A DNA stretch of 62,008 nt, filler included. It is 12 parts of 12 records of this genome, joined end to end, with 100 filler letters (N's around TTAATTAATTAA, not from the genome) between each part and the next. Parts side by side here need not be neighbours in the genome. Positions count along the whole stretch, not along the records: positions 1 to 7,063 come from SRR7504441_3573; 11 more parts are not named here. One strand, 5' to 3'. The translations under genes were made by a program, and so were the position numbers. Below, piece by piece: positions 1-57,228 of the stretch. Every line of letters begins with the position of its first letter. Positions within the stretch are counted from its first letter, which is position 1. The notes under the pieces are model-generated. The model saw only the letters and a list, made by a program, of their open reading frames with translations. It ran no database searches and was not told the origin of the DNA.

Positions 1-3000
1 CCAGAGATGGAGCCTTCCGCAGAGCCAGCAGCAGAGCCGGAGCCAGCAGCTGAGCCGGAGCCCGAGACGACGGAGGCGTCTGCCCCCAAGCCCAAGCCCC
101 CGGCGGAGGAGGCTGAAGAGCCTTACCAGGAGTATTTCGCATTAGACAATGAATCCATAAAGGCGATAGCAGCCAAGTGCGATGGCGTGACTGCGGCTCA
201 GCTGCTCGCCCTGAACAAGCCGCGGTATCGAGGACTCACCACGGTGGCGCGGCTGCAGGCCGGGACTTCGGTTCTACTGCCCCACGGTGCAATGCAGATG
301 CCAGAGGACCCGGGCGAGGACAGCGATGACAGTGACGCACCTCTCGGAGAACTGCATGGCGCCACGCCAGAAAAGCAACCGAAACCGGCTAAGCGCCCGC
401 CCACAGCCGCCAAGAGCGTGACGGCTGTTCCGGGTAAGGGCGCGCCTCGAGGCGGCAAGATGCCCGAGCGCGTGCTCGGTCCCGGGGCGCGGGTCCGAGT
501 GTATTGCTCGCTCGACCAGCCGGCGCCCAAGGAGTCTCCAGGGCTTTCCGCACTGACCAAGTGGCTAACCGAGCGCAAGAAGCGCCAGCGGAGGCGTTTC
601 AAACCGGATGAGTGGTGGGTGCGCCAGCTGGCAACTGCCGAGCGTGTATGGTAGGTTTTACGGCGTGGTGCTTGAGGCGAGTGACCAGGATAAGATATGC
701 GTTGAGTACCACAGGCCGCAGCTCGGCCGGCAGCCTCCGGTGCCTCACAGCGGGCGCTGTGCGCCTAGCTGGTCTGCAGGTGTGCTTGCGAGAGGTGACA
801 GTGCTGCTTGAGCAGTCTGTGCTCTGGGTCAAGACAAAGCCGCAGGACCCGATCTGGTGGCCGTCCTCGCTGTTGCTCAACGTCGGCCAGTGGACTGCTG
901 ACGACCAGGACCAGATTGTTGAGTACCTAGGCGAGCACCAGTGCAGCCACCGCGCGCCACACGTGACCGGCCGCTTTGGGCGCGGCTCAGATGTGTGCAG
1001 CCTGGAGACCTGATGGAGCCGTATGTGGAGGCGACTGCTGATCGGATCGACCAGCTGCGCCGGCATGCGGAGCTGGATGGGACTGGCAGTTGGGACTTTA
1101 GCAAGGCGAATGCTGCGATCGAGGTGCCACTTGACTGCTAGCCTGTGGCGAGCCCGATTGCAGGAGGCCGAGCAGCTGCAAGGCACGATCGACGAGCACG
1201 TTGCAGCCTACAACGCCAACCACGCGGGATTCGTTATCGGACAGAAGCAAAGCGCCGTAGCTGATGAGGAGTCGTCGTCGTCTGACGACGAGAAGGATCA
1301 ATGGGTACAATGCGATAAATGTGACAAATGGAGGCGGCTCGCCGGCTGGATCGCGCCGCTGGAGGGCGAGCAGTGGGTGTGCAGTGATAATCCTGACCCT
1401 CAGCGCAACTCGTGTGACATCCCACAAGAGGACACCGACGCTGACACGGAATCGGACCAGTCCGACAGTGACTCTGAGGAGGGTGCAGCAGCGGAGCAGG
1501 AGCAAGACCAGGACGGCGAGGACCACCAAGAGCCACGTAGCCGGCCGCCCAAGGCAAAAGTCGATAAGAACGCTTACCTCAAGGTGCAGCCCGCCCTGCA
1601 TAGTTCACTGAGCAATCTTCTAGTATGAGCTCTCTGAGGCGGACCAGAAAACTGTGGCGAATATTTGTGTGCGCCTAAAGAAGCTCGGGGACAAGAAGGG
1701 CGAGAATGGCTACAGCAGGGTGGAGTCGCAATGCAACGATTACGGGATCCAGATCGACGAAGACGACATGCACAGCACCGTGACCAAGCTGGTTCAATAC
1801 AAGCTGTGCCCGCCACATCCAGCTAGCAGTCCGATTGAGGTGGTCAGGTATCTTAAGGAACAGGGCGACGACGTAGACAAACGCCTGAGGCGAAAGAGAG
1901 AGCGAGAGGAGGCCAAGCGCGCCAAGGTGGCCGCATTAGCTTGTCGCGTCTGAGCGGGACTCCAGGAGGCCAACTCCGAGCAGGCAGCCGAGTCGAGGCC
2001 GCCAAAGAAGCCCAAAATCACATCGGCAGCCAACCTAACTCTCAAACCACGAAAGCCGGACGCCTCGCGGAAGCCTGGTAAACCGATGCATGGCATGAAG
2101 CACTCGGATCGGCCGCGGAAGAGCATGCCTAGTGAGCGCAAGGCCGACCCAGAGAGGCGACCGGGGGCACCGAGCTTCCTGGACAGCGGCGTTAACCATA
2201 TCTTGATCAGCTGGGCTCCGCCGGAGCAAGAGGCCGAGCTGGTGATCGGATACAAGATAGTGATGTGCAAGGCAGACGGGAACCGGGTGTTCACTCACAA
2301 AATGACAATACGAGGCAAGGTCCCGTCGGCCAAGGTCGACGAGCTTGAGCCAGGCACCTACTACTTCAAGGTCAGGCCTTGCTGCTCGAACAGCTGACTA
2401 GCGGTTGTTGCAGGTGTCGCCTCTTTTCAAAGGCAAGGACATGGATCGGCTTGGCATGGATCGGCTGGGCGCCATCCTGTCGGATAGCAGCAGGCCAATG
2501 CGGACTGAGGGCGCCCCGCCACTGCACAAGAGGCCCGAACAGCCTGCTGGCCCCGTGGGTGCTCAAGCTGCAAGCAACGGCGGCGTCAAGGTGACAGCGC
2601 CGCCGCATTGCTGGGGCGACGGTGGCCAGCAGGCTTCTGGTGTCAAGCGGCCCCTCGGAGACTCGGTTGATTCCAGGAAGCCGACTGCAACAGCTCCCGC
2701 GGCAAAGAAGCCCGCGGTTCAGAAGCCCATGGAAACAGCTCCAGCTGTCAAGGGCTCTGATGCAGCCGCGGTGGTGCATTGTGTCTCGTCTGATGACGAC
2801 TCAGATGACACACCCATCGCCAGCCTCTCTGTTAGGCGCGCTCAACTAGATCCAGTGAAGCCGCTTCAGCATTCGGAAGTCAAACCTGCGGCCGACGATC
2901 CTTCAACTCGGGTGAAACAGACGGCTCGCAAGAGCTGCGGAGGTAAGTTCCCAGAAAAGATTCTTGTCGCCGAGGGCATGTTGGCCGAACCCAAAGCGCA

Positions 3001-3094
3001 GCCGCCAGCCGAGGAGCCTAGTGATTCGGATGAAGATGTGCCGCTCTCATCCCTAAAGGCGGCCGCGCTGGCGGCCGCACCGGACTTGGACTAG
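1..3094 (+). CDS. Multi-exon chromatin-reader-like protein: LysM-like, Tudor-like, PWWP, CW zinc finger, FN3 and a C-terminal H3-tail-like peptide (5' end may be missing)
   Basis: The ORF pieces join through GT-AG introns at about 615-654, 740-779, 963-1000, 1124-1163, 1584-1623, 1927-1965 and 2371-2413. Motifs: LWVKTKPQDPIWWPS..VEYLGEH (PWWP), QWVQCDKCDKWRRL..WVCSDNPDPQRNSCDIPQE (CW), PGAP..ISWAPP..IGYKI..LEPGTYYFKV (FN3). Stop at 3092-3094. Confidence 0.8.
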
Positions 3095-3218
3095 GCAACT
3101 GGCAAAGTTCTAGCATAGTCATACATAGTTCTAGCAAAGTCCTATCGCGTTTATAATTATCATTCTTTCGATAATGAAAGAGTTTATGAAACTGAGATCA
3201 TGTTTTTATCGTGTGTTA

Positions 3219-5177
3219 TTATGTGTTATAAACTAAGCCATCGCAAAGGCACTCATCTTGTTGGAGCGAGCAACATTCGGATAAGTGGAACACTTGGGCA
3301 ATCTTGGCACTCACAAACAGCAGCATCGAGCCGTGCAAGAGCCAGAAAAGCGGCTTATACGCGTCACTGGGAGGCCGCGAGTGCAGCACTGCACCCAAGG
3401 AGAGCACACCGGCCATGACTATGATTCCGAACAAGGAGGTGGCAATCTCCTGATAGGAATGGAATCTCAGACACTCGAACGACAACTGCTCGTGGTCAGC
3501 ATGCATAGGCTGAGCCAGGCTTACCTCGATCACAGCCAGCGAGCAGCCGGTGCTGTACGCAAATATCGCCAGCACCATCAACCATGTGGTCTCGGGCTTT
3601 ATTAATGGACGCTTTCTCTCATTCTCAACCCTGCGACCAGCTCAACAATATAAAGGCGATGCCAGACCATTGCTTCTCCATCAGCTCGCGCATCCACCTA
3701 AGACAGCAATTAAGCTCCTAGGGTGGAAACAGCGGCGGCACCCGGCGCCGAACAGCTCGTGCTTCCACATGGCCACCTGAGACGACGCAACCCGTGACTA
3801 ATCGTAGAAGCCTGGGTGAAAATACCTGCAAACTGGCCGCAACAGCGAACATGAAGCTTCCTATCACATAGGGCCAGACAACAAGATTTGAGGTCTGGGT
3901 ATTGTTTAGATCAAAGTACCAAAGGCCGCACGTGGCAGCAAAGGTGAACAGGAGAGAGCCGACTGAATTCAACACACAAACCCACCAGACCAGCGTGCCG
4001 ACCCCCTGCCTCCACTCGAGTACCTTGTTGTGTGAGCATTCAATTGCCGACCCGACGCAAAAGAATATGCAGCCAATGAACGATGGCCCGTAATTGAGCA
4101 GTTCTTCGTCCTCTCGGTTAGCTGTAAACGTGAAGGGGCCTGAAATACAGCAATTGCATCAAGTGCACAAAATCAATTGCCTGAGAACACAGCAATCCCG
4201 AACACACTGGTGCCAATGAAAAAGCTGAGTGCACCCAGCGGCCCAGGCTTGAACGCAATCGACCGGTCGAAAGTAAACCAGATCTGCTGGTTGTCGGGAT
4301 TCTGGTCGTTTATGCATTCGTAATACGCTGCCGGCAAGGTCAGTACATCCCAGCAGGGGCCTGCCAACCGATATAAGACGAGAGAGAGAAGAGGGCCCCG
4401 CCCACAGCGAATGGATACGTTATCAACGCATCTGCGGCACCGGTCAGCGGAGCGCAGCATGGGGGGTGCACCTGAGGTCTCGGCGGTGTATGAGTCGTCA
4501 AATAGCCAATAGAACGATCCGATCGTGAAAAGAATCGAGCCCACAAGAGTCGTGATCGCCACCCAGTAGGTGAGTGTGTGCCTGAACTCCCACGCAGCCT
4601 CCTCCTGGTGCTTGCTCGCGATGAACCGGAGGAACCCGTCGAAGGTGATCCCGTGCTCGCACAGGAACTCCTGGCCTTCATTCTGCAGCAGCCAGTCCGA
4701 GGCTTCCGTTGACTCCTCGTCCAGCAGCTTCATCGCCGCCTCCAGCTCGCTCAGCGTGATCAACCCGTTGCTGCCCGCCAGCTCGGGCCAGTCCGACCGG
4801 TTGGCCGGCACTTGTTCCGGTCGAAGAGGTCGAACACCTGCCGTAGCTCCTGCTGGGTATATACCTTGGTCCCCAGACTAAAGATATACCTGCCGCCGGG
4901 ATCAGCCCCCGCAGCCCCTCCACACGCACCGCAGCTTGCTGCCCTGGTGCAGCCGCATTGCCGCCACCGCCGACTGCCGCTTCCGTTGCTCAGCCGCGGA
5001 CAGGGCCACCTTGCACCCCAGGCTGGCGGCAGGGTGCCCGGGGCGCACCTCGGTGCTCTGGCGGATCTGGTCGACCATCCCGTACAACTCGGTGCGGTCG
5101 GCGTCGCTCGAATCGAGCAGCGGGGTCCGGGCCCGTGAGCTCGGCGAGTCCAGCTTCTCCCGCACCCCCAGCTCCAT
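3219..5177 (-). CDS. Multi-pass membrane protein with N-terminal EF-hand and repeated YrhK-like transmembrane segments; multi-exon
   Basis: Spliced EF loop FDLFDRN-SNGLITLSEL. Repeated TM motifs GSILFTIGS, FFIGTSVFGIA, NSVGSLLFTFAA, YVIGSFMFAVAA. ATG at 5177; exon boundaries approximate. Confidence 0.6.
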
Positions 5178-5252
5178 CGCCGGCAAGTGATGCAACAGGG
5201 GCCTTGCCCGGGGCGGAACTGAAGTCTAACGGAATCCACGGCCGCGGCCGCG

Positions 5253-6709
5253 ATGAAAGGTAGCATGAAACGACCAGCAGTGGCGTCGCTCCTGCACACT
5301 CTCGGTGCGCCCGGCGTCCGGGCGCCCAAGCTGGTGTCGTGGGGGGTGGGCTCGTTCGGGGCTGTGGGCGATGGGAGCTACGTCACCCGTCCGACGCCGG
5401 TGCCGGTGGAGCTGCCGGGCCAGGTGGCTGCCGGTGGCGGCCCCCCGGCCAGCCTGGGCAGGTGAGCGGTGTGTGGGCCGGCTGGGGCGACTCGTACGCG
5501 CTGCTGGACGATGGGGAGCTTTGGAACTGGGGTCACCCGCTCGACTTCCAGTCGCTGCTCTTCACCAACACCATGCGCAGCCGGCTGCCCACTGCCACCA
5601 GCTGGCTCCAGAGCCTTCCGCTCGGCTGGGTATCTCTCAACACAGCCGAGCTCGAGCCGCGCCCGCTGCTCGGGACGGTGGACCAGCTATCCACGGGCGG
5701 GTGCTTCACGGCAGTTCTCACTGACAGCGGCCGGCTGCTCAGCTGGGGCATGAACAGGTGCGGCGGCCGGTCGGCGGGCTGCTCAGCGGCGGGGCAGGTG
5801 CGGCCAGTTGGGGCTCGGGCACAAGGACTTTGTGGACATCCCGACACCGGTGGAGGCGCCGCAGCTGGCCGCGCTCCGGTCGGTGGCATGTGGATTCCAG
5901 CACGCGGTGCGCCGGGCGATGGCAGAGTGCGAGCACGGGACAGGTTGCGCTGGACACGGACGGGCAGCTGTGGGCCTGGGGCAAGGGGCTGGTGCGCCCG
6001 GCGCCCGGGCAATGTGCCAGCCGGGGGCAGCGTGGGCAGCTGGGCGCGCGCCCTCCGGCTGATCAGGACGACGGCCGGCCCTTCCTGACTGCTCGCAAGG
6101 CGCAGCATGAGTGCTGAACGGTGTGAGCTGGCGCAGGTGGAGGGACTAGACCAGGAGCCAATCGGCCAGTTGGAATGCGGGTTCAACCATACGGTCTTAC
6201 TGGGCGAATGTGGCCGGGTCTGGTGCTGTGGCGCGGCGGGCCCTGCCGGGGTGGGCAAGCGAGACGTGCAGGCGAATGCCGATGCTAATCTCGAATGAGC
6301 GGGCCGGCAGGTACCGCGGGAGGTGAAAGGCCTCGAGCGGATAACGGAGATTGCAGCGGGGCAGAGCCACAGCCTGGCGATCAACGAGAGCGGGGAGGTG
6401 TTTGGATGGGGATCCAATAAGTTTGGCCAACTCGGAGCGGAGCAAGCCGAAATGGTTGCGCGGCCTGTCAGAATCGAGGCCAAAAGGCCAGTAGTCAAGG
6501 CTGTCGCGGGATGGCACCATACAATGCTCTTGACCGACGAGGGTGAGGTGGTTTGCTATGGTTCAGACCCCAGCACGAGTCAGTCTGACCCGAACCGGTT
6601 TGAAGCGACTGGGCACGAGGGAGCGGTTGAGCACCTGAATCAGGCGGGCTACGTGACCGACTTGGCGCTTGGTTGGAAGCACGGATTGGCCCTAATTATT
6701 GAAAAGTAG
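5253..6709 (+). CDS. RCC1-repeat beta-propeller protein; multi-exon
   Basis: Repeats LSWGMNRCGQLGLGH, VACGFQHAVALDTDGQLWAWG, IAAGQSHSLAINESGEVFGWGSNKFGQLG, AGWHHTMLLTDEGEV. Short introns, including a GC-AG intron at 6100-6136. Confidence 0.88.
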
Positions 6710-6767
6710 CACCCCCATAGATAGCTCATGGGATAGCCACTTTTATGAGCTCAGTACAGTAATACTA

Positions 6768-7063
6768 TTATACTCGCATACAATCAGAGCATTTTGGGCC
6801 GCTGCTGAAGGAGCCGCTGAGACCGACTGGGGGTACATGTACATCGTTGATGATGTCATTGCGTGCAACCACATGTATACTGCACACCTCCCTCGAAACC
6901 TACTCCTTGATCCTCGATATATATCTTCAAACTAATGATGTCATCATACGTGCAGTAACTCGTATACTGCACACCTCACTCCCAACAACATCCGGAGTGG
7001 CATGCCTGCACCACAGCCGCATCAGGTTGCTTGCTCGGGCAATGAGCACCTAGGCGATGTAGG
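6768..7063 (-). CDS. Probable 3' end of an unidentified multi-exon gene
   Basis: Removing three GT-AG introns (including 6932-6974 and 6827-6887) gives an open frame ..GMPLRMLLGVSLKIYIEDQGVGFEGVGLSGSFSSGPKCSDCMRV-stop. No homology recognised. Confidence 0.35.
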
Positions 7064-11140: not shown

Positions 11141-11240
11141 NNNNNNNNNNNNNNNNNNNNNNNNNNNNNNNNNNNNNNNNNNNNTTAATTAATTAANNNN
11201 NNNNNNNNNNNNNNNNNNNNNNNNNNNNNNNNNNNNNNNN
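11141..11240. other. Artificial contig-joining spacer
   Basis: N44-TTAATTAATTAA-N44. Confidence 0.98.
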
Positions 11241-12566
11241 AAACAAACCGTTGTTCTGGTAACCAAGATCACCATGCCCCACGCCCTCGCTCATACCAGA
11301 GTCCGCGCTGGCGAATCCGAACGGTGCAATGTGCGCCGGGAAGCTGAGAGCGGAGCAGTTTTTGTACCCCGCTGCTCTGCGGGCTTTAGGGACAAAGTCC
11401 ATCAACGGCTTGAAGAACGAGGACGCCTGATCAATCCGATTGGCCGGATACATTCCCCAAAAGTTTGCTTGGTAGTTGTAGTCTAGAGTGTAGTCCCCGC
11501 TCCACGGTGGGTTGTCTGAGAACACCCACGGCCCAAACAGCGCGGGCGCCACTGTGTCCGGACGACTCGTGCTCCCTGCCAGGAACTGTAGTGAATCCCA
11601 GAGCTGCTGCACTTGCTGGTTCGCAATGCTCACGGAGGTCTGGTTCCAGAATGTGCCCCACCACGATGCGTGCGGCTGCTCGATAGCGGCCATCGCCGCC
11701 GATGCGTCGGTCGCTGCCAGAGCTTTCACTGTCTGCTGTGCCACCGGAAGCGGGTTGCTGCAGCCGGCCCAGGTGTCGCAGAGGTCAGTGTTGGTCACCA
11801 CCGCTGCCAGCAGTGTGAGCTCGCCCGCCACGCCGTGATACACGCAGCTGGCAGCGAGCCCATCCGCAGAGCAGTTGGTCGGCGCAGGCAACCTCTCACC
11901 TACCAGCGCTGTCGCAGTAGCAACAGAGATCGGCTTGGCGGTGAAGCCAAACGGGGTCCGTTGCGCCCATGGCCCGGCGGCCGACCCACCGGCCTTGGTC
12001 GATCCATCCATATCAGCACACGGTGTGGCGTACGGCGGCGGGACCTTACGACCGCAAAGGCTCCCCAGCGGCAGCGACCAGGCTGTCACATTCAAGTCCA
12101 AGGCGCTGGCCGTCTCGATCGCCACCGCCAGCGCCGACCCGTTCGCCGTGCGTTCGCCGAGCAGCACCCTGAGCCGCAGCTGACCTAGCTGGATCCGGGC
12201 CTCGGCTCTGGCCATGTCCAGTTCGGCGCTGAAATTCGCCCCAACCAGCCCGGTGGCCGCCAGCGTGAGTCCGCCCACACCCAGCCGGCGGGGCCCGATC
12301 TGGTCAGCCGCGTTGTCCGACCAGTGCCTGTACTGATTGAGCAGCCACATCTGGTTGAGTCCGAGGTAGAGATGGACTGCGCCAGCCGACGGGTCGGCGC
12401 CGACGGACAGCCCGAGGTCGCCGTTGCCCAGGAACGGCCCTGACGGCAGCGGGGCGTTTGGGGCGCCGGTTGGGTCCATTGGCGGGGCGTCCCAGTGGTA
12501 GACGGTGGACGAGTCCGCGCAGAGCAGCCCCCACCAGCAGAGCAGCCCCCAGCACAGCCTCGACAT
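11241..12566 (-). CDS. Secreted GH95-like glycoside hydrolase (alpha-L-fucosidase-like), 3' partial
   Basis: Signal peptide; GPFLGNGDLG; HASWWGTFWNQTSVSI; LFGPW..PPWSGDYTLDYNYQANFWG..ANR, which resembles the GH95 W.gdyh.niN.qmnyW region. Confidence 0.72.
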
Positions 12567-12650
12567 CAGTGTTCTGGGGTGCCGTTACTGCACTAAAAAT
12601 ATCCTCGATCGAGGAGGTGGGCTGGGCCTCGGCGGTCAGCAGCAGTCGCG

Positions 12651-22475: not shown

Positions 22476-25146
22476 ATGAGCTGCTGCGGAAGTCTGATGC
22501 GGGGCCACTCACTGCCGGCGCTCGCGCTCTTGCGCCTGCTACTGGTCACCTGCAGTGCTGCCAACGAGCCGGCCTGCCCCTGCGCCGCGTGCCCGTGCCC
22601 CGAGCGGAGCCTGCTGCCCCGCACCTGCGCTGCCGGATCCGTCGCGCACGGGCTGCCCTTTTGCGACGCGACCCAGCCGATCACGGCGCGCGTGGCCGAC
22701 CTGCTCGCCCGGTTGACGCGACAGGAGAAGATCTCGCTGATCGAGCGGGCGGACACGGGCTTCCTCCCGCGGCTGAACCTGAAGGAGTTCAACTTGTACA
22801 ACACCTGCCTGCATGGCTGGGCCACCAGCAACGTAACCAGCTTCGGGATGAACATAGGCCTGGCCGCCTCCTTCGACCTCGACCTGATGCGGCAGATCGG
22901 CGAGGTGGTCGGCAGTGAGGGCCAAGCGCTGAGTCAGCGCGACTACAGCGCCAGCTTCAACAACCAGCTTAAGCTGTACGGAGTAGCGTACAACTGTAAG
23001 TCTCCTTGGCGGGGGCGGGCTGAGCCGGGCTGCAGGGGGGGTGTGCAAGGACTCGTCTGAGGTGAACATGGCGCGCGATCCTCGCTGGGGCAGAGTGTCT
23101 GAGACTTACGGGGAGGACCCGACCCTTACTGGTACTATGGGTGAGGTGTTCACACAGCAGCTCCAGAGGCCGGATCCCGCAATCGACTTTCTTCGGGTCG
23201 CCGCGGTCACGAGGCATTCGGTTGTGTACAGCGGACCTGAATCTCTGTGCTCCGACGCAATAGCGCCCGGATGCAGCGGCTGGAAGCCTACCGAACCGGA
23301 GCGCTCGACCACGCAAGGGGGCTACCAAACTAGATTCGCATTCGATGCGACCGTAAGCGAACGAGACCTCGAAGACTATTTCTATCCCGCTTTTGAGGCT
23401 ACAATCTCTCGGAAGCGCGGTGCAAGCGCAGGTGTGATGTGCAGTGATGCGGCCCAAAATGGCGTGCCTTCCTGTGCCTCTTCGCTGGTGATGACACAGA
23501 AACTCAGGGACTGGAATGCCTCGGATGGCTTCTTTACAATTAGTGACATGGGTACCTACTGGAACGTCTTTGCTGCGCACAAGTACGAGAATAGCACAGC
23601 GCAGGCCCTATATGAGGGGCTTGGCGCCGGCCTGAACATCCTGTACGAACGCGATGGGAAGAAATGTGCGCCATACAACGTCAATTGCTCGTGCGTGACG
23701 CCGCAGAACCAGTCCTGCACCATCTCGCAACAGGCCGCCGAAACATTTGCCGCTCTGAATGCCGCCACCGACGGCACAGTCAGCGATCCGCGCTTTGGGC
23801 TAGAGCAGCTTGACTCCAAGGCAGCAGTTGTGCTACGTGTCCGCTTCTCGCTCGGTGAGTTCGACGAGACTGCGGCCAACTATCAGAAGCAGCCCAAACC
23901 AGCGTCCGTGATTCACTCCGCTGCGCATCGTGCGGTCGCGCGGCGGGCAGCGGGACAGGCCGTGGTGCTCGTTAAGAATAGCGACAGACTGCTGCCACTC
24001 AATAAGTCGGCGACGCACAAGCTTGCTCTCATTGGTCCGTGGATGCGGCCTGCGCTGCAGCCGCCAGTGAAGAACCAGAATGGTCGGTCTCTATCATACG
24101 TGCACACCTACGCCAACGAGCAGGGCGTGGAGGTGGACTTTCTGACTGGGATCCAAGCTGCGGTGAATGCCACCCAGCTTGGCACCGACATCCTGTTCGA
24201 GCACGGCTGCTTCATCGAGAAGCCGATCCCAGGGCAGGAAGACTACGCTCCTGCCATTGCCGCCGCAAAGCAAGCCGACGTGACAGTGATTGCCCTGGGC
24301 CTCTCTGAAAACATCTGGGACGCGCATGGCGTCGGCGGTGAGATGGAGGGGCGCGATAGGATCTCGCTAGACCTGCCGCAGGTGCAGCTCGATCTTCTCA
24401 AGGCCGTCCGCAAGGCGGCCAACAAACTCGTCCTGGTCATTGTATGCGGCTCCGCCGTGCGCATCGACGAGGCGCTCGCTGACTCGGCAGTGTATGCGCT
24501 CTACGGAGGCGAGGAAGCGGGCAACGGGCTAGCGGACGTGCTGTTTGGCAGTGTTCCGCCCTCGGCACGGCTGCCGTTTACAGTCTTCAACTCGACCGCG
24601 CAGCTGCCGCTGATGAAGGACTATAATCTGACAGCAAGCCCCGGCCGCACTCATCTGTACTACGACGAAAGTGCTGGCCCGCCGCAGCACTGGTTCGGGT
24701 TTGGGCTCAGCTACGAGCAGGTTGTGTACAGCGGTGCGAGTGCCCGCTTCGACAACACATCATGCTCACTTAGCGTGCAAGCGTCTATCAGCCGTGCGGA
24801 CACAACACTCGGTGCATCAGCCAGCGAGGTATCACAGCTCTATATTAGTGCACCACCTCAGACAAATCTGCCTGCCGCAAAGTGGGCACTGCGCGGTTAC
24901 ACACACACGGAGCTGGGTGCTGCACCGACACAACTCAACTTCAACTTGAACGCGTACGACCTCTCGACGGTGCTGCCCAATGGCTTACGTAAGGTTTTTG
25001 GCGGTGATTACGAGCTGAGGATCGGTGGTTGTCACCCGCGCGAGCCTTCACGCGATGACCCGATTAAAAGTTGTGGCTCAACGAGCACGACTGTTACCTT
25101 GGAGCAGATGATTGCGTGCCCGGTGGCGTTGCAAGAGCGTTGGTAG
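22476..25146 (+). CDS. Secreted GH3 beta-xylosidase/glucosidase-like enzyme, 2 exons
   Basis: PFCD..RVADLLARLT.QEK; NMARDPRWGRVSETYGEDP; ISD nucleophile; VLVKN..LPL; EGRDR..L.LP; GNGLADVLFG..PSARLP; FGFGLSY. Intron 22996-23035. Start may be 22497. Confidence 0.9.
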
Positions 25147-36861: not shown

Positions 36862-39800
36862 ATGGCCGCCAAAGCGGCCCGGCAAAAGCCCCCAGCGGCT
36901 CCGCCAGCATCCCGCGAACAGCCGGAGACGGGTGTGGACGGGCCGTCGACGGCGCGGCTCCAGCATCAGGTGGATGCGCTAGAGGGTGAGTTGGAGTTGC
37001 GAGGTGCCCAGCTGGAGCAAGCAAGGCAGCGGAGTGCCACTCTGCAGGTCGTGCTCACACCCTCGCCGTGCTCAGCGGGCGGCAGGGGGAGCTCGCGGAT
37101 AAGGACCGGGAGCTGCATGCGCTTCTGGCGGAGGAGCAGTCGCATTCTGGACCGAGCCAGCGATGGTTCAGAGGAGAGCCGCAGGAGGTGGCAGACTCCG
37201 ACCGGCAGTGGTTCCAAGGGCAGCCTCGGGATACTGCTAAGAGCGCCGAGTGCAACCGGCTGCGGATTCAGGTGACAGAGCTGGGCACGGAGCTAGAATC
37301 AATACGGGCGGCTGCGCGGTTGCAAAAGGCAGTGCTGAGCAGCAGGTTGAGTCAGCTGAAGCAAGTGCAGCTGGCTGAAGCGAGCAAGACTGCTCGGAGC
37401 AACAGCAAGCTGCTGAACAAGCTGAAGCAACAGCTGGACGAAGTCACTGCTGCGCACAGTGTGCTGCGCACCCGGTTCGTGTCTGCAAAACTGCAAGGGG
37501 CTGCAGCGCTAAGTCACGAAGTAGACAAATACAACACAGAGGTGGACAGAATGTCCGCCCGCATCGGGCAACTAGAGCACGAGCGCGAGGGCGAAGCTGC
37601 CCGGGTCGAGGCAGCAGTGCACGCCTCGCAGGCCAAGGTGCGGGCTGGCTGGTCGTAAATCCCAACGGCTGGGGCAGATTGACCAGCAGATTGCGGCCAT
37701 CCAACGGGAGAGTGACCAGAAGATGGACGCGCTCCGTGGGTCGAGAGCGGCGGTGGATGGCGAGTTGGAGGCGGCCAGGAGGGAGCTGGAGCAGGCGAGA
37801 GAGGCGCATGCGGAGCTGAAAGCAGCCAAGCTGGAGCTGGAGGCGGCCCGTGGTGAGCTGAGGCTGAAGGACGAGTTGATTGAACAGATGAAGTCTCACG
37901 AGGCCGAGGCTGCCCAATTGGGGCGGAGCAGACATCAACATGCAGCTCCGGGCGGGCTGGCAACTCACCCAGAAGCGGAGCGGACTCGCGAGAAGGTGAA
38001 GCAAATCTCCCTCGAGGCGCTGGAGAGCCCAGACCCAAGCCGTGAGCCGAGCCGGGTCCAGGTAAAGAATCAGGTCGAGAATTGGCTCACTGGTGCCGAA
38101 GCCAGGAAGCTGGCCCGCCAGTGGGTGCAGCCATTTGGGGCATCCAAGCATTATAAGTTTAACGTACAGCACAAGGACGACAGGCTTTCTAGCGGACTCG
38201 AGTGTGAAGTGTACCGAGCCAAGAATACGACCTCGGGAGAGGTCGTGGCGCTCAAATGCGTCGAAATGTACGACCTTAGTGAGTACGATGTGATCAGCGA
38301 GGAGTTCAGGATCATGAAGGCCTGTGAAGGTCACCCTCATGTGATACAGCTCCGAGGCATCTATCATGACCGCAACCGAGGGCTGCTCCAAATTGCGATG
38401 GAGATGATGATTGGCGGCACCCTGTTCGACGCTGTGAACAAGCGCGGACGATTAAGCCATCCACAGACTTGCGATGTGCTGCGTAATGTTTCGTCAGCTC
38501 TTGCGCATATGCATAACCTTGACTTTATTCACCGGGATGTCAAGCCAGAGAGTGCGTGCTTCCTTTGTATAGACCCTGACCGCTGTGGCAGATATTCTTC
38601 TCCGCAGGATTGACGACCTCAGCTCCGTTGTGCTCAGCGACTTTGAAACCGCCATTCCCAACTCTGCATCAAGCCAAGGTCCCGCCCAACTCACTGATCT
38701 CGCCTCTGACTCACACTTTGTTTCGCAGCCAAAATTGGTGAAGTGGGCACAGCTGGCTACATTTCTCCAGAAATGCTCTGCCTAAATGATTACGACTTCA
38801 AGACCGATATTTGGTCTCTTGGGGTGGTGATGTTCGTCATGCTGATCGGTGGCACCCCATTCCCGCAGTCAAACCGCAAAGAGGCTCGCGAGACCACTTG
38901 CGCTGGGCTCGGTCCTGCACACCAGGTAAGACTCCAGGAGCTTCAACCAAAGGCTGTCGAACTGTTAGAGTGGATGCTTCAACCTGATCCTGTCAATCGA
39001 GCCAGCTCAATCGATGTGTGCCAGCATGGATTCGTCTCGGGCATGCAATCCCCTGAGTCAGCACACCACTCTCCAAGTTGGCGGGGCGCCAAGCACAAAT
39101 GGGCACAGGTAAGAAACGCAGTCAATGCAGTGTTTTCGCTGCGGCGCACATTCAACAAGCGGCCGAAGAAGCCAGATAACCGCCCCAGGTCAAACACAGC
39201 AGCACCTGCTCCTCCCGGAGAGTCGAGGTTGATGGACGACAAGGAGCTCTCCCGGTTCATCAATGATGAGTCGCAGCTCAATAAGAAGTATGGCTCGCGC
39301 AACTCGCTCACTACCAACGAGAACTGTGACATCTACACAGCCAAGCGGAAAAAGGGAGGCGAGCGTGTTGTCATTAAGGTGGTAGAATGTGACCCCTACG
39401 ACCTCGGCCGAAAGGAGAAGCTGACAGAGGAGATTCGGATATTTGCTAGCATGGGCAAACATTCGAGCATTGTGACGTTTTTCGAGGCGTTCTTCAACTC
39501 TTACGAGTGCTATACAGTAATGGCTTGGGCTAAGGGTGGGGAGTTGTTCGATCGGGTCCAGCGTCACGGGGTCTACAGCGAGTCCGAGGCCCAGCTAGCA
39601 TTTGCCAAGCTGGCCGATGCGCTGTGCCATGTGCATTCGCGCGGGGTAATCCATCGGGATATCAAGCCTGAGAGTGAGCCTGCCAACTGCCTGACTACTG
39701 ATCGCTGTCGCAGATATTCTGCTTGCCTCGCCCGACGACCCCACCTCAGTGCTGCTCTCAGACTTTGATATGGCCATTGAAGACTCAGCCTCTCCTAATG

Positions 39801-40215: not shown

Positions 40216-40373
40216 AATCGAATTCTAGGGTTCTCGAAAGTAGAATCGAATAGACAAAATAAACAGGTCTAGAGTCTAGGGTATTCTGAAATAACTATGG
40301 TCGGCTATGGTCCCAACTAACTTGATGACCGGCCGGTGGATCCAACGTATCTACGAAGACGACCGGAGCCGCG

Positions 40374-41585
40374 ATGGAGCTGCAGGTGCTCACGGTGAGC
40401 GGCGAGGAGGGCACCGGTTTCCTGTGGGATCTGCACACCGGCAACCTGGCCGCCCGGTTCGTCGGCTGCACCGCGGGGGCTGGCCAGCTGGCAGCCGCCG
40501 GTCGGGGGGTGTTCTTCAGCGCGGCCACGGACCAGCCCAAGCTGATGGGCTGGGCCTGGGGGCACGAGCAGCCTCGCTCGCGCTCGGTGACGCCCGAGAA
40601 GCTCCGATCGGTGGCGATCACACCGGACGCGGTCTTCCTGCTCGGAGGGGGCGAGTCCGGAACGGTCTACTGCTGGGAACTCGGGAGCGGGCGTCTGCTC
40701 GCCGGGTTCCCGGGGCACTATGGCGCGGTGGGTAGCATCGCGGTGGCTGACGACGGCGAATTGGTCTGCACCGGGGGGGATGACGCCATCGTGCACACTT
40801 GGCGGTTGGGGGATCTTGTTGTAGCCGGCGCCTCGGTGCCGACCGAGCGAGGCTCGTGGACAGAGCATTCGCTGCCGGTGACCGCAGTGCGGTGCGGCTC
40901 GGGCGGACTGGCGGGGCACATTGTGACGGCGTCACAGGACCAGACGATCAAGGTGTGGCAGCCGATGCAGGAGCCGCATTGCGTGCTTTCTGTCTCACTG
41001 CCCACTCCGCTGAGCTGTGTCGCAATTGACTCGCTTGAGCGGTCGGTGGCCACGGCAGGCGAGGACGGCATGATCTACCATCTCCCATTGGTCCTCGTAC
41101 CGGGCGCGCCCACCCAGCACGTCCTAGCCGGACACACGGCTCCGGTACTCTCGCTGGCAATCACATTCGATGGAGCCCTGCTCGTGTCGTGCTCGCGTGA
41201 CCAAACCGCCCGAGTGTGGGACTTGGCCAGCGCCCAGCAGGTGCTCAGCTTCACACTGCACGCCGGGGCTGTGAGCAGCTGCCTGATCCTCAGCTGCTTC
41301 AACCGCCAGTCGAGCGCGCAGCAGCTGGTGCCGCTCCATCGCAGGCTGCCCCAGCACGACGACCCCGATGAGGTCAAGGACGCGCCCATCCCTGCTGTGC
41401 AGCTGGCGAGCAGCGGCAGTGAGCTGCTCGGGAGGCCTGGTGGCGAGCAGGGTCCCAAGGGCGATGCGCTGCATGAGCTGCAAGTTGAGCTGGCAGCAGA
41501 GCGGGAGCGGGCCGACCATTGGGAGGGGCTGGCTACTGAGCTGCAGAAGAGTGCGGTTGGGCGGGCCGCGGAGGCGCTGAAGTGA
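40374..41585 (+). CDS. WDR18: WD40 protein WDR18/Ipi3 (rixosome, pre-60S), intronless
   Basis: PEKLRSVA..GGGESGTVYCWELGSGRLL..GHY..TGGDDA..W; WTEHSLPVT..GSGG..VTASQDQTIKVW; C-terminal coiled coil. Confidence 0.85.
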   Translation: MELQVLTVSGEEGTGFLWDLHTGNLAARFVGCTAGAGQLAAAGRGVFFSAATDQPKLMGWAWGHEQPRSRSVTPEKLRSVAITPDAVFLLGGGESGTVYCWELGSGRLLAGFPGHYGAVGSIAVADDGELVCTGGDDAIVHTWRLGDLVVAGASVPTERGSWTEHSLPVTAVRCGSGGLAGHIVTASQDQTIKVWQPMQEPHCVLSVSLPTPLSCVAIDSLERSVATAGEDGMIYHLPLVLVPGAPTQHVLAGHTAPVLSLAITFDGALLVSCSRDQTARVWDLASAQQVLSFTLHAGAVSSCLILSCFNRQSSAQQLVPLHRRLPQHDDPDEVKDAPIPAVQLASSGSELLGRPGGEQGPKGDALHELQVELAAERERADHWEGLATELQKSAVGRAAEALK

Positions 41586-42388: not shown

Positions 42389-43364
42389 ATGAAGATGCTC
42401 TTGCTTCTCCTGGCTACTGCCCTGCTGCCCTGCTCCTGGGCGGCCTCCGGTCCCATCGACAACCAGTGGCGCAGCTGGCTCGACGCCCCACCGGCCCGAG
42501 CCGTCAACCTCACCCGGCAGCTCCGTTCCCGAGCTGACGCTCTTGCAGCTGGGCTGAACGGGTCTTGGCCCGGACCGATCGACCTGGTGTGCAGTGGGGG
42601 TGGAGATCTGAATGCCTACTATGCGGGAATCGAGATGGTGCTCTCGAGGGTCTCCGCGAAGTCGCCGGGGCTCAAACAGTACCGGCGGGCCGGGGCGAGC
42701 GGAGGCGGTTGGATCATCTTCGAATTGGCGCTCAAGGGCGAGCAACGGACGCTCGAGTCGTACCTGTCGTATGGCATGCTCCAAGAGGTGAGTAGGGCCC
42801 GCCCCGTCCTTGCCCTCACAGCCTGCTTAGGCCAATCCGATTCACTTTGCGACCATCGCTAGCACGGTTCTGCTGCAGGATCATCATTGGCGGATCATGG
42901 CAGCGTGGCAAGCCCAAAAGTGGAACGCGACGCTGGACACGCTCGACGGCCGAGTCAATCTGGCCCTCGCCTGCGGCTGGACTGAGACCAAGCTCAAAGT
43001 AGTCAACCAGTTTACTTCGCCCGCGCAGGCAGCCTCAGCGTTTATTTCGACCGGTGCAATCAGCCAGATCTACCTCGGCGACTGGTGCGCTGACGGCAGC
43101 GGAGTTTCAGGACCAAACATGACCCCGCTGTTCCAAGACGCGGCCCGGCCGCAACTGATCGTGAACCTAATGGAGACTGGGTTTCCAACAATCGAAATGG
43201 GCGGCGGCAAGTTCAGCTCATCGCAATATTTTCAGCTGGTCCAGCGTGGTCAAGACGAGGCGGTGGAGTTCCTCCAGACTCGCAAGGTGGCGCGCAACAA
43301 AGCGGCCATCACACTGTGTCCGACTAGGGCGCGAGTCAAGTCCAACGTGTGTGAGACGCTCTAA
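42389..43364 (+). CDS. Secreted patatin-like acyl hydrolase, 2 exons
   Basis: Signal peptide; DLVCSGGG oxyanion motif, GASGG nucleophile elbow, ADGS; intron 42788-42830. Confidence 0.72.
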
Positions 43365-50964: not shown

Positions 50965-51064
50965 NNNNNNNNNNNNNNNNNNNNNNNNNNNNNNNNNNNN
51001 NNNNNNNNTTAATTAATTAANNNNNNNNNNNNNNNNNNNNNNNNNNNNNNNNNNNNNNNNNNNN
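50965..51064. other. Artificial contig-joining spacer
   Basis: N44-TTAATTAATTAA-N44. Confidence 0.98.
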
Positions 51065-54000
51065 CCGAAGGGTTTGCGCAGCTCGTGCCCGAGCTGTTTG
51101 CTCCGCTGGTCCAAACTCTCAGCAGGCGCGGGCAACTGTTGGGAGGCGTGCGGTGCGTGGCCTCGATGCTGGCCCGGATGGCCAGCGGGGATGCGACCAA
51201 CTTCCTGGACTCGCACACCAATGCGCTGCTGATAGCGCTCTTCCCGCCTATGTGCAGCCCTACAGCCGAGCTCGGGTCGGGCCAGGCGCGGGTGAGGTCC
51301 GAGGTGCTCCGGTGTTTCGAACTATTGGTTAAAGTTCGGCCAAACTTCGTGCTCCGGTTCCTGATGGGCAAGATCGAGGACCCGCGGGCCCAGGTGGAAT
51401 ATGCGGGCTCGCTTGGGGTGCTCAGGCATCTGATGGCCCACGACGAAGAGGACCTCGTCAAGCACAAGAAGGCGCTCGTGCAGCAGGTGGCCCGGCTGGC
51501 GGCCGGACCGCATAGCCCGGCGGTGGCCCGGGAGATCGGGCAGCTCACCATCGCCTTCTCGTCCAAGGGCTGGCTGGACGAAGCCTCAGCGCGCGTGTTC
51601 ATCCCGAAGCTGCTCCAGCAAGCTGCCCAGTCAGATGCGGCGATCACAGCTGCCGTGGCTCGGCTCAAGCCAGCAGACCAGGTGGCCAGCCGGCAGTCAC
51701 TGGAACAGCTGCGGACAATGAGCGACCACATTCTGGACCTGCTCACCAAGGGAGCCGACCAGTCGATGCTACCGCTGCTCTGGTCTCAGTTTGTTCCGGC
51801 GCTGACCAACAACGCGCTAGCAGGAGCGCTAGGGATCGTGTGCAAGTGCATCAGTGAGATCGGCTCGCGCAATCTGGACGGGCTGGCGCTACCCCAGCAG
51901 AACATCGCCTGGGCAGACGGGCTTGCGTGTCCGCCTGAGGATTCGGATGCGCAGACCATCCCAAAACAGGTGATGACAGTCCGTCTGACTGCACTACTCG
52001 GGATGCCCCACGAACGCAACCAGCTGGGTCTGAACCTGCTCTCGGCGATGAAGGTGCTCGCCAAGCCGATAGCTCCCAAGCTGCAGCAGCTCTGGGGTTC
52101 AGCCACCACCCAACTAGCCTCCCATCTGAGCCAAGCAGCCGATACGCTAAAGCAGCCGTTCTGGGAAGAGCAACTGATCCGGCTCTTCTCGGCGACCAGT
52201 GACGTTTGTGTGATCAGCGACACGAACGTGGCTGGTCACTGGACCGGTCTAGAGCTGGCGCAGGCGCTCACTGACCAGATAAAGGGCTGCACCGGCGTGC
52301 TGGCTGGAGCCAGGCCGGTGTTATTCAAGTATCTCGGACTCACGCTGCGTAAGCTCGAGCCGGAGCACGTACCGGCCCAGCTGGACTGCATGTTTGCACT
52401 GGCCAACCACGGGTTAGCAGTGGAGCAGGAAGCAATGGCCCAGGGGATTGGATTCTGTGCAACAGTACATCTGGAGCTGCTAGTGACCAAGGTGGGCTAT
52501 CCTGCGGGGTGGGCGCTGAGCTGGTGGGTTGTTACAGGTCAACTCGGTGTTGAGTGAGGCCTCCAGCTCGGGCAAGGGAGGGGCTGGAGGATGGAGCATG
52601 TTCTCCGGGCAGAAGCCAGGCAAGGCAACAACAGAACCGCTGCAGGCGTCGGTGCTTCTGTGCATTGGCTGGATTGCTGTGTACGCGCCTTCTGAGCTGG
52701 TCGAGCAGCATGTGGAAGAACAACTGGTGAACACGCTGACCCCGATGCTCTGGGATGTTAAGACTGACTTCCTCCGCGCAGTGGCTCTTCGGTCGATTGA
52801 ATTGATTTGCAAGGCGCTGCACAGTAAGCACCCGGGCAAGGTCGATGTGCTTAAGCAGCGGGATGAGCTGGTGGATCACTGCATATCGCTGCTGTCGAGT
52901 ACACCTGAGGAAGGACACAAGAGCAAGCTCCTTGGGATGCATGCGTGCACCCGGTTGGTGTTGCTTGAGCCGCCCCTTTCTCTCGAGGCGACCTCTCGGC
53001 TGGTGGAGACTGCATTGCCGTTCCTGTCCCTCGACGGGGAATCCATCAAAGAGCTCTTGTCGGCAGTGTGCGACATGCTGGCTGCCATTTTACACCAGAA
53101 TTGCTCGCAACAGTGCCTGGAAGCCATGGTAGATATGTTGCAAGGGCTGCTGCAGTCTGATGTGCAGCTTGAGCGTGAACGAGCGGTGATGACCATGCAC
53201 TTCCTACTCACAAAGTTCCAGGAGTACTTCAAAGAGGCACCAGCTGCATCGAGTGCGGATGGCGACCACTCTGAGCAATGCAGTCGATGCTTTGCGATGC
53301 TCTTGCCACGCGCTGTAGATGAGGCTGAGTCCATTCGGACTCTGGCGGTCAAGGCTGCTAGGACTGTGCTCACCCTGCAGACGGAGCTAATGGGAGGCTC
53401 AGTCAAGTTTGCAGACACCATCAAGACTATACTCGACAACTTGAGCTCAGCAGGAATGCAGCTCAAACAGCATGTTCAACCAGAACAGGAAATGGAAATG
53501 ACTCCGTCTCAGGAGCTGCAAACAATGGTGTTTATAGAGCAAGCAGTGGAAGGTCTGTGCCCGCTGATTTCGCATATTCAGGTCCAAGTCCTCACACGGG
53601 TGCTTCTCGATGTCATGAGCAATGAGCAAGAGCAGATTCTCTGCGCCCGTGCCGCTGCATGCGCCTTCACGTTGCTGTTGCGCGATAAGGTCGATGGAAT
53701 GGCCGGATCCGTGGTTCCAATCCTCGAGGAATGTATGGATCCCCTTGCACAAGTGGGCTACCAGCCGACTCTGAGCACTGCCATTTCAGGAGTGGCGTGC
53801 CTAGCATCCAGGTGTCTTGCACACGAGCCCAGACTGACTTCTTTTATATCAGGCACTTGCCGGAAGCCCTGCCCGTGATTTTGGAGCAGCCAATACCACA
53901 TTCTCTGGTGGTGGTCTCCCTGCTACAAGGAGTCGCCAGAGAGAACACGAAGCCTGCCGAGGCGAATGGTGACTGCTACCTTTACAGCTCAGAACTCAAT

Positions 54001-55824: not shown

Positions 55825-57156
55825 CTACTTGCGATTGAGGTTGTGAGCAAATCTTTGCCAGGCCACGGCCGGATTGCGTAATCGAATCGTGTGCAGCAAG
55901 TAGATGGCCACCGTGAATACAGTGAGCGCTCCGGCCTGATGGGCTGCCCCGAGCTGCACCGGCACCGCGTAGTGCAGCGTGGTGATTCCCAGTCCCACCT
56001 GTGCCACAGTGGCCCCCAGCAACAGCCCGACTGCCATCCGAGCGTCCTTGGGCAGCTGAAGCGAACGGGCATAAGCCGCAATCCCGGCCACGCTGGTGAG
56101 CGTGCTCACGGCCAGCACCCGGTGATCGAACTGCACCGCGGCCACGTTCTCAAACATGTTCCTGTACCAGGGCTGCAGCTCCCAGTAGCGCTCTGGGAAC
56201 AACTGGCCATCCATCAGAGGGAACGTGTTGTAGTGGTGCCCCGCCTTCATCCCGGCCACGAACGCTCCCGAGATGGCCGTCACCCCGATCAGGAAGGCGG
56301 CCGGGTGCGCCACCCGCCGGAGCTTGAGGACCGACGCCAGCTGGGCTGGAGGCAACTCAGGTGGCACCCGGGCGTACACAGAGAGGCCGGTCCAGAGGAT
56401 GCCGGTGTAGATGGTGAAGGCTCCGAGAAGGTGGGTGGCCAGTCGGTACGGGCTGACGCGGACTATACTGTCATCGCCTGTGGACCTGCATGTCGACTCC
56501 TCCAGGCCACTCTTGACCATCCACCAACCGATCGCGCCCTGGCATCCACCCATCGTGAAGAGCGCTCCGAGCCGCCAGGCCAGCGGCGTCTTAACGTACC
56601 CCCGCATGGCAAAGTAGGTGGCCGGCACCGCGAAGAGCACCCCGATGGCCCGGCCAAGCATCCTATGCCCGTATTCGAACCAGAAGATCGGCTTGAACTG
56701 GTCGAGCGACATGTCCGGCCGGAGCTCCTTGAATTCAGGGAACTGCTTGTACTTGCCAAACTCCACCTCCCACTCCTCCTGGCTCAGCGGCGGGAGCAGC
56801 TGCCGCGGCTTCCACTCCACCATCGAGAGCCCCGAGTGGGTGAGCCGGGTCACCCCTCCCAGGATCACCATCGAGAACACCACCGCGCACGACCCGAACA
56901 GCCAGACCGCCACCGGCCGGCGGCCGGCCTCTGAGGTCAGCTCGGCCCAGAGCTTGATTGGGAGCCGGTCCACGCGCATCACCTCCGGGGCCGCGGGCTG
57001 ATGAAGCGGGATCGCCAGAGTTGACTTGCCCCGGGCGGCCGACTGGATCGACCGTCCGATCCGCCCGAAGCTGGCCTGGAAACGCCCAGGCGTCGCCCGC
57101 ACGAGCCGCCGCGGGAGCGAGCCGGAGAGCAGCCGCGAGCACCGCTGGAGCAACAT
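55825..57156 (-). CDS. COX15: Heme A synthase COX15 with mitochondrial presequence, intronless
   Basis: LGGVTRLTHSGLSMVEWKP, EFGKYKQFPEF, FWFEYGHRMLGR, QGAIGWWMVKSGL, VSPYRLATHL, SGAFVAG..YNTFPLM, VQFDHR, AAHQ. ATG at 57156. Confidence 0.95.
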   Translation of the reverse strand: MLLQRCSRLLSGSLPRRLVRATPGRFQASFGRIGRSIQSAARGKSTLAIPLHQPAAPEVMRVDRLPIKLWAELTSEAGRRPVAVWLFGSCAVVFSMVILGGVTRLTHSGLSMVEWKPRQLLPPLSQEEWEVEFGKYKQFPEFKELRPDMSLDQFKPIFWFEYGHRMLGRAIGVLFAVPATYFAMRGYVKTPLAWRLGALFTMGGCQGAIGWWMVKSGLEESTCRSTGDDSIVRVSPYRLATHLLGAFTIYTGILWTGLSVYARVPPELPPAQLASVLKLRRVAHPAAFLIGVTAISGAFVAGMKAGHHYNTFPLMDGQLFPERYWELQPWYRNMFENVAAVQFDHRVLAVSTLTSVAGIAAYARSLQLPKDARMAVGLLLGATVAQVGLGITTLHYAVPVQLGAAHQAGALTVFTVAIYLLHTIRLRNPAVAWQRFAHNLNRK

Positions 57157-57228
57157 TGCGCAGGCCGTGCGGAGAGAGAGGCGCGACTCCCAGTCTTTCC
57201 GTTGGCGTTGCTCAGCTCGCTGCGCCGT

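Follow-up and report, generated by a model that had tools for sequence, protein, structure and literature searches.

A protein of chromatin-reader type encoded at the start of the stretch of DNA studied here carries, within its C-terminal tail, a 17-residue peptide closely resembling the tail of histone H3. The stretch, called the window below, comprises 62,008 nucleotides (nt) in 12 parts from 12 records of one genome, joined end to end with 100 filler letters between each part and the next; positions 1 to 7,063 come from the record SRR7504441_3573. The peptide in question, RVKQTARKSCGGKFPEK, is encoded by positions 2909-2959 of the plus strand in the last exon of a gene with a CW-type zinc finger, and is identical to residues 2-18 of H3 at 13 of 17 positions (76%). 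This likeness exceeds chance. The peptide is probably a real part of the protein, and we infer that it is translated in vivo. That it also functions as a histone-tail mimic, serving as a ligand and/or substrate of H3 readers and writers, is proposed by analogy, with a probability of about one half.

The H3-like peptide and its surroundings

The peptide is translated in the frame of a stop-to-stop open reading frame (ORF) at 2402-3094 from the codons cgg gtg aaa cag acg gct cgc aag agc tgc gga ggt aag ttc cca gaa aag (2909-2959), and its first residue is number 873 in the 933-residue model, directly preceded by ...DDPST. It retains R2, K4, Q5, T6, A7, R8, K9, S10, G12, G13, K14, P16 and K18 of H3 and differs by four substitutions (T3>V, T11>C, A15>F and R17>E), so that H3 residues 5-10 (QTARKS) are matched exactly and the G-G-K-x-P pattern is also retained. 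An earlier note on this DNA, written from the letters alone, had given the same 13 of 17 identities, including the equivalents of K4, K9, S10, K14 and K18, with which our recount agrees; it had also placed the peptide in the last exon, which is exon 8 (2414-3094) of the present gene model. Past the peptide, the alignments to chains of the PDB show an identity of 1/9 (L20) over H3 positions 19-27.

The relationship to H3 is also evident from a phmmer search of exon 8 (226 amino acids, aa) against all PDB chains, in which 119 distinct sequences were matched at E<=10 and the best 60 of the 119 all derived from H3, as peptides, chains or chimeras, with one entry labelled Cse4. Among the matches listed, all aligned within exon 8 residues 163-191 against H3 residues 1-30. 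The E-values are modest (0.025 at best) because the match is short. When the protein's own composition is taken as the null, the probability of at least 13 identities in 17 is 8.4e-13 per position, from which the expected chance count of a 13/17 match is 1e-7 for the window in six frames, 4e-6 for a proteome of 5e6 aa and 0.026 over 250,000 six-frame windows. The runner-up among H3 17-mer matches in the window reaches 8/17.

Disorder-promoting residues make up 65% of the tail encoded by exon 8, in which A, P, S, K and G abound. No Pfam family was found in it, and an AlphaFold2 (AF2) model built from the single sequence, which is a weak test, has a mean predicted local distance difference test score (pLDDT) of 47.3 with a single helix of six residues. 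The earlier description of a disordered tail devoid of a histone fold is consistent with both results. A search of all six frames of the whole window for histone-core motifs or an H3 gene returned none. No histone fold follows the tail-like segment and the peptide is not N-terminal, which sets the protein outside the histone H3 family.

Over the last 120 residues, the sole decade with a net basic charge (+4) is that of RVKQTARKSCGGKFPEK, which has an acidic motif on either side. An acidic run of Ser and Asp followed by P-[LIV]-x-x-L occurs in three copies in the protein, of which two flank the H3-like peptide. The first copy, of the acidic-PLxxL form, lies in exon 1 (316-354), the second, of the acidic-P[LIV]xxL form (SSDDDSDDTPIASL), at 2786-2827, both found by motif search on the plus strand; the third, again acidic-PLxxL (SDSDEDVPLSSL), is at 3020-3055 on the same strand, in frame and downstream of the peptide. 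The Ser/Asp runs resemble CK2-type phosphorylation sites. A repeat scan of positions 1-3300 returned just short, chance-like families near the peptide.

The gene and its domains

The plus strand from 1 to 3094 is modelled as one gene of eight exons, the 5' end of which is cut by the window. Joined together, the exons form one open frame of 933 codons that ends with the stop codon TAG at 3092-3094, so that the protein has at least 933 residues. The GC content falls from 0.65 to 0.33 directly after the stop codon, which fits the end of a gene. Two further observations concern the region beyond: a 21-nt tandem repeat (86% identity) occupies 3103-3144 in the AT-rich stretch after the stop codon, and long minus-strand frames run from near 3219, where a neighbouring gene may converge on the reader gene.

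Exon 1 (1-614, within a frame open over 1-654) encodes an acidic and Pro-rich N-terminal part and the start of a segment that is Tudor-like by eye. It is followed by intron 1 (615-654; 40 nt, GTGGGT...TAG), the removal of which restores the frame, exon 2 (655-739), and the inferred intron 2 (740-779; 40 nt, GTGCCT...CAG). Exon 3 (780-940, with an alternative 3' end at 962) contains an IWWP motif at 852-863 that looks PWWP-like by eye. For intron 3 the model holds two options, 941-990 or 963-1000, with exon 4 at 991-1123 or starting at 1001, and intron 4 covers 1124-1163 (40 nt). The CW-type zinc finger (1299-1430) is encoded by exon 5 (1164-1583), followed by an acidic stretch. After intron 5 (1584-1623, 40 nt), exon 6 (1624-1926) adds about 100 residues, ordered as judged by eye, which match no recognised family in Pfam or PDB. 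Intron 6 (1927-1965, 39 nt) separates it from exon 7 (1966-2370), which encodes a run of basic residues and the larger part of an fn3-like domain (2161-2364), and intron 7 (2371-2413; 43 nt, GTCAGG...CAG) is followed by exon 8 with its 226-aa tail, predicted to be disordered. A 15-nt tandem duplication at 2440-2469 encodes MDRLG twice at the start of exon 8.

The introns between 615 and 2413 are tiny and uniform, at 39-50 nt. GTG is the donor in 6/7 and GTC in 1/7, and the acceptors are CAG (5/7) and TAG (2/7). Candidate introns of similar size were seen elsewhere in the window at 22996-23035, 37638-37677, 42788-42830 and 52492-52537.

Scans against Pfam and PDB were run exon by exon on contiguous DNA, in which the PWWP-like and Tudor-like segments are split by introns. 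In exon 7, fn3 (PF00041) was matched with E 8.9e-5 and 23.1 bits against a cut-off of 25, over profile positions 3-62 of 84. The rest of this domain should lie in exon 8; the fn3-like domain would then span intron 7, which would favour a place for exon 8 in the same transcript. A LysM-like stretch at 151-282 in exon 1 stays below the Pfam cut-off (E 0.042; 14.2 bits against 20.9), and such a domain, if real, would be odd in a protein that otherwise looks nuclear. The earlier note had listed CW, PWWP and Tudor-like domains in this protein. Of these, CW was recovered by Pfam, and the PWWP and Tudor-like assignments stayed at the level of reading by eye: for PWWP (PF00855), a domain split here by intron 3, neither exon 3 alone nor its read-through gave a match in Pfam or PDB.

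The CW finger in exon 5 matches zf-CW (PF07496) with E 8.6e-16 and 58.1 bits against a curated cut-off of 27.5. In an alignment of 11 sequences, C50, C53, C73, C84 and W56 are invariant and W71 is conserved in at least 90%. The closest solved chain is the CW of MORC3 (E 1.6e-11), with which both Trp residues of the cage align; the CW fingers of ZCWPW1 and ZCWPW2 match at E 4e-8 and 2.8e-4, respectively. An AF2 model of the CW exon based on the 11-row alignment reached a pLDDT of 57, with strands of low confidence at 46-49 and 56-59, and docking of residues 36-100 of the CW exon with residues 152-196 of the tail, run without controls, scored 0.01 against a mark of 0.34 and favours neither side.

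The PDB matches also include 6o5w, in which MORC3-CW is fused to the H3-like C-terminal peptide of the influenza protein NS1. According to the accessible part of the source, MORC3-CW binds this mimic as a third strand of the CW sheet, with a lysine placed between W410 and W419 (PMC10612106). This bears on the earlier caution that a CW finger usually needs a free H3 N-terminus: as the mimic of 6o5w is internal, the caution is softened, and binding in the window protein would be weakened but may still occur.

Relatives of the protein and possible descent from an H3 gene

Relatives of the tail were sought with exon 8 in several ways. Of 8000 candidates scored in a word-index search for longer proteins, none had E<=0.01, phmmer against 1.84e9 representative proteins gave none at E<=0.001, a metagenome scan confirmed none of 245 pattern matches, and the ESM Atlas gave no usable match. 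With the CW exon, two proteins were found, both multi-CW and of different build, and a metagenome search returned 25 loci, to which exon 5 alone matches: the remaining exons had no match in these loci, the best non-CW E-values being 0.057, 0.50 and 0.53. Two of the loci, with ORFs read by eye, combine HMG-like, CW and Myb-like parts (L001) or SET, CW and chromo domains (L002). No relative was found that shares more than the CW domain, and ZCWPW1/2-type orthology did not emerge from these searches.

One of the 25 loci, the marine contig L021 (71% GC), encodes a CW protein (CW at 869-1174) that, after an inferred intron, reads ...KKRQ|VKQTARARAAA... (VKQTAR at 1792-1812) upstream of a Tudor-like segment; its acidic ...ESLPIALRRL motif (about 1265-1290) resembles ...DDTPIASLSVRR of the window protein. 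KQTAR occurs nowhere else in the 262,534 six-frame residues of the 25 CW loci, and an exact VKQTAR would be expected about 0.01-0.05 times by a rough estimate. The finding is suggestive of a motif shared with the window tail or of a distant analogue, or else due to chance; it hints that the K4-like core may recur among algal CW proteins and be of older origin.

One alternative is that the peptide is a relic. An H3 coding fragment, from a complementary DNA (cDNA) or an intronless gene, could have been captured in the last exon and kept as a basic part of a disordered tail, for example for nuclear localisation or for contact with DNA or the acidic patch, with no function as a mimic. Descent from an H3 gene is a natural source of a match beyond chance, the orthologue searches yielded no evidence of conservation, and a tail lacking detectable relatives among 1.84e9 representative proteins is what would be expected if it were young or fast-evolving. 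Against this, the change from 13/17 within H3 2-18 to 1/9 over 19-27 makes an edge sharper than uniform decay would leave. Under the genetic code, two base changes are required for every one of the four substitutions, whichever codon the H3 residue had, and 13 codons have kept their residue, which suggests a long divergence under constraint. Finally, the CW finger of the host protein belongs to a family that reads the H3 tail sequence. We consider such a relic unlikely, but plausible enough to be kept in mind.

A splice donor or codons at 2943

The earlier note had pointed to AG|GTAAGT at 2941-2948 as a donor that could cut the mimic. The letters are there, with GTAAGT at 2943-2948 on the plus strand arising from the codons GGT-AAG-T of Gly-Lys-Phe, and GTAAGT is a consensus donor. 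Use of this site would have different consequences depending on the acceptor. Joining to 2974 (32 nt removed) or to 3001 (59 nt) shifts the frame and leads to the stop TAG at 3019-3021 in both cases. By contrast, the AAG acceptor at 2996 keeps the frame, at a length (54 nt) near the 39-50-nt range of the other introns of the gene, and would leave RVKQTARKSCG with an acidic C-terminus.

The coding potential of this segment was assessed with a log-odds score of codon usage, for which the exons preceding the peptide served as the training set. Over 2945-3091, the unspliced frame scores +26.1 and the other two frames -7.0 and -36.0, and the frame-shifted products would fall in the worst of these. 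Over 2945-2995, the score of 0.55 per codon is exon-like (0.61+-0.27 in 51 exon windows of equal size), while the seven introns of the gene model score at most 0.26 per codon in every frame. The would-be intron would also contain the H3 identities K14, P16 and K18, together with L20, and the third acidic-PLxxL motif lies in the unspliced frame. All seven acceptors of the gene are CAG or TAG and all seven donors GTG or GTC.

Thin RNA evidence points in the same direction. One 151-nt contig of a seawater metatranscriptome made from poly(A) RNA spans 2831-2981 with two mismatches and no joint, passing position 2943 by 39 nt, and a second 151-nt contig from the same source starts within the would-be intron at 2985 and reaches 3135 with three mismatches, again with no joint. 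The one difference listed is a synonymous T>C at 2908. GTAAGT at 2943 is thus most likely coding and not a donor, and of the earlier suggestion the letters stand and the cut is unlikely. Some room is left for a splice variant because one of the candidate introns elsewhere in the window, the putative 40-nt intron at 22996-23035 in a GH3 gene (one of eight candidates there), also begins with GTAAGT, so that the organism may use such donors. Loss of part of the peptide by splicing is all the same improbable.

The first of the two contigs also bears on a possible assembly chimera, in which H3 reads would have been wrongly joined into the contig of a window that may derive from an environmental assembly: this independent RNA covers the peptide with both flanks, the window holds no histone-fold sequence, and frame and codon usage run on unbroken, all of which makes a chimera hardly credible. 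Equally little speaks for a resemblance arisen by chance in a tail of low complexity that is rich in Lys, Arg, Ala and Gly, for which the richness in A, P, S, K and G and the modest phmmer E-value could be cited, given a probability of 8.4e-13 per position, 0.026 matches expected in 250,000 windows and a next best match of 8/17.

Proposed function

The preferred reading is that the 17 codons represent a translated internal copy of the H3 tail, situated in the disordered C-terminal part of a nuclear reader with several domains, and that the peptide would act as a short linear motif treated as H3 by the enzymes and readers of the H3 tail. Two modes can be envisaged. In cis, the K4-like part (RVKQTA) would bind as a strand to the MORC3-like CW finger of the same protein, in competition with real H3, by which chromatin binding could be tuned, with the balance set by the flanking acidic motifs and by modification of the peptide. 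In trans, QTARKS and GGKxP might serve K9-, S10- and K14-type enzymes as substrates for methylation, phosphorylation or acetylation, and the marked peptide would then be bound by the matching readers, as for the automethylation sites of G9a/GLP. A-R-K-S is the core recognised by chromodomains, and G-K-x-P is the recognition core of Gcn5.

In a further, rather doubtful extension, the reader would carry its own writable H3 tail, with K4, K9, S10, K14 and K18 positions marked by the H3 machinery and read in cis by the CW, PWWP and Tudor-like modules, and the activity of local writers and erasers would decide whether the protein is closed and bound to itself or open and bound to chromatin. The observation made in the earlier note, that of an H3-like peptide in the disordered tail of a CW protein, is borne out in its peptide, frame, non-chance likeness and CW finger, the PWWP and Tudor-like parts were not recovered by any tool, and the suggested roles of decoy, auto-inhibitory ligand or substrate are conjectural.

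Several points weigh against a mimic function and have to be set beside the evidence above. T3, T11 and R17 of H3 are lost in the peptide. The residue equivalent to A1 is a Thr within the chain, and there is no free Ala N-terminus; in the accessible part of PMC10612106, NS1 itself is described as an imperfect mimic because it has no free N-terminal amine. The PWWP-like and Tudor-like assignments stem from reading by eye, and the seven GT-AG introns were placed from frame continuity alone. The RNA support is probably a single read pair (depth 3) of a strain that is 98-99% identical. As no contig crosses any of the seven introns in the two matching metatranscriptome runs, and thus no true intron is covered, the RNA could also stem from unspliced pre-mRNA or from DNA carried over. 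Lastly, the searches with exon 8 and with the CW exon found no orthologue of the reader protein that would speak for selection on the peptide.

If the peptide is functional, it would be the most complete endogenous surrogate of the H3 tail found, with 76% of H3 2-18 beside a reader finger of the H3K4 type. It would offer a natural system in which marks at several sites of a tail are written and read off the nucleosome, and would show how reader proteins regulate themselves. If it is a captured H3 fragment instead, it would provide a clean case of a histone tail co-opted as a module.

Source organism and other genes of the window

The rest of the window contains a GH95 catalytic domain (11196-12584, minus strand), the GH3 gene (22987-25143, plus), a WD40 propeller (40329-41582, plus), Maestro-type HEAT repeats in two frames that are probably split by an intron (51013-53875, plus) and COX15/CtaA (55828-57552, minus), all assigned by Pfam. 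The best named relatives of COX15 are from Viridiplantae, with 53-56% identity (Ostreococcus tauri, Klebsormidium, Marchantia and others), and environmental sequences reach up to 85% identity. Parts of the stretch were found in sequencing runs of marine or seawater metatranscriptomes only, two of which contain about 5% of the sampled words. From these sequence matches, we infer that the source would be a marine alga of the green lineage that has no near relative among sequenced species and belongs to a barely sampled group.

Comparison with known systems

The proposed mechanism has to be seen against several systems in which sequences other than histones are treated as H3. G9a and GLP automethylate H3-like motifs, and the methylated motif binds HP1 unless the next residue is phosphorylated by Aurora B; H3K9-like sites of LIG1 and ATF7IP are read by UHRF1 and MPP8 (PMC8166343 and PMC9768651, accessible parts). 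The window peptide shares with these proteins an internal H3-like motif with an A-R-K-S/T core in a non-histone chromatin protein. The motifs quoted as H3 mimics in the accessible text of PMC8166343 are four residues long (ARKT in G9a, ARTK in PRMT6) and each imitate a single modification site, in contrast to the 17 residues and five modifiable positions found here, which upholds the earlier remark that known mimics are generally shorter. A second difference is that no methyltransferase domain is recognisable by Pfam in the visible part of the window protein.

NS1 bound to MORC3-CW (6o5w) is similar in that an H3-like R-x-K motif is presented without the free N-terminus of H3, and the window CW is nearest to that of MORC3 among solved chains and keeps both Trp residues. 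The two cases differ in that NS1 is viral and acts in trans on its host, whereas the window motif and the CW finger are parts of one cellular protein. In addition, the residue before the R is Thr in place of Ala in the window protein, for which binding to CW is a proposal.

A proposed role in cis has a counterpart in the linker between the PHD finger and the bromodomain of BAZ2B, a lysine-rich segment which, in the accessible part of PMC5663869, lowers the affinity of the PHD finger for H3 intramolecularly, an effect that modification of the linker itself may regulate. Both are disordered basic stretches of multi-reader proteins that compete in cis with the H3 tail, or in the window protein would do so. 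On the same source, the BAZ2B linker resembles H3 by its lysine-rich charge only, in contrast to the 76% identity of the window peptide to H3 2-18. UHRF1, a parallel system, is also reportedly regulated intramolecularly.

With ZCWPW1 and ZCWPW2, the window protein has in common a CW finger and a segment that is PWWP-like by eye, and it differs from them by the addition of LysM-like, fn3-like and tail parts. We know of no H3-like peptide in ZCWPW1 or ZCWPW2, and a search of literature listings, with selected passages and abstracts, found no comparable H3-like peptide described in a protein of the CW/PWWP type. The kinds of mechanism proposed here, histone mimicry and intramolecular regulation of a reader, are already known from these systems, and what appears to be new, as judged from the sequence, is the length of the peptide and its five modifiable positions.

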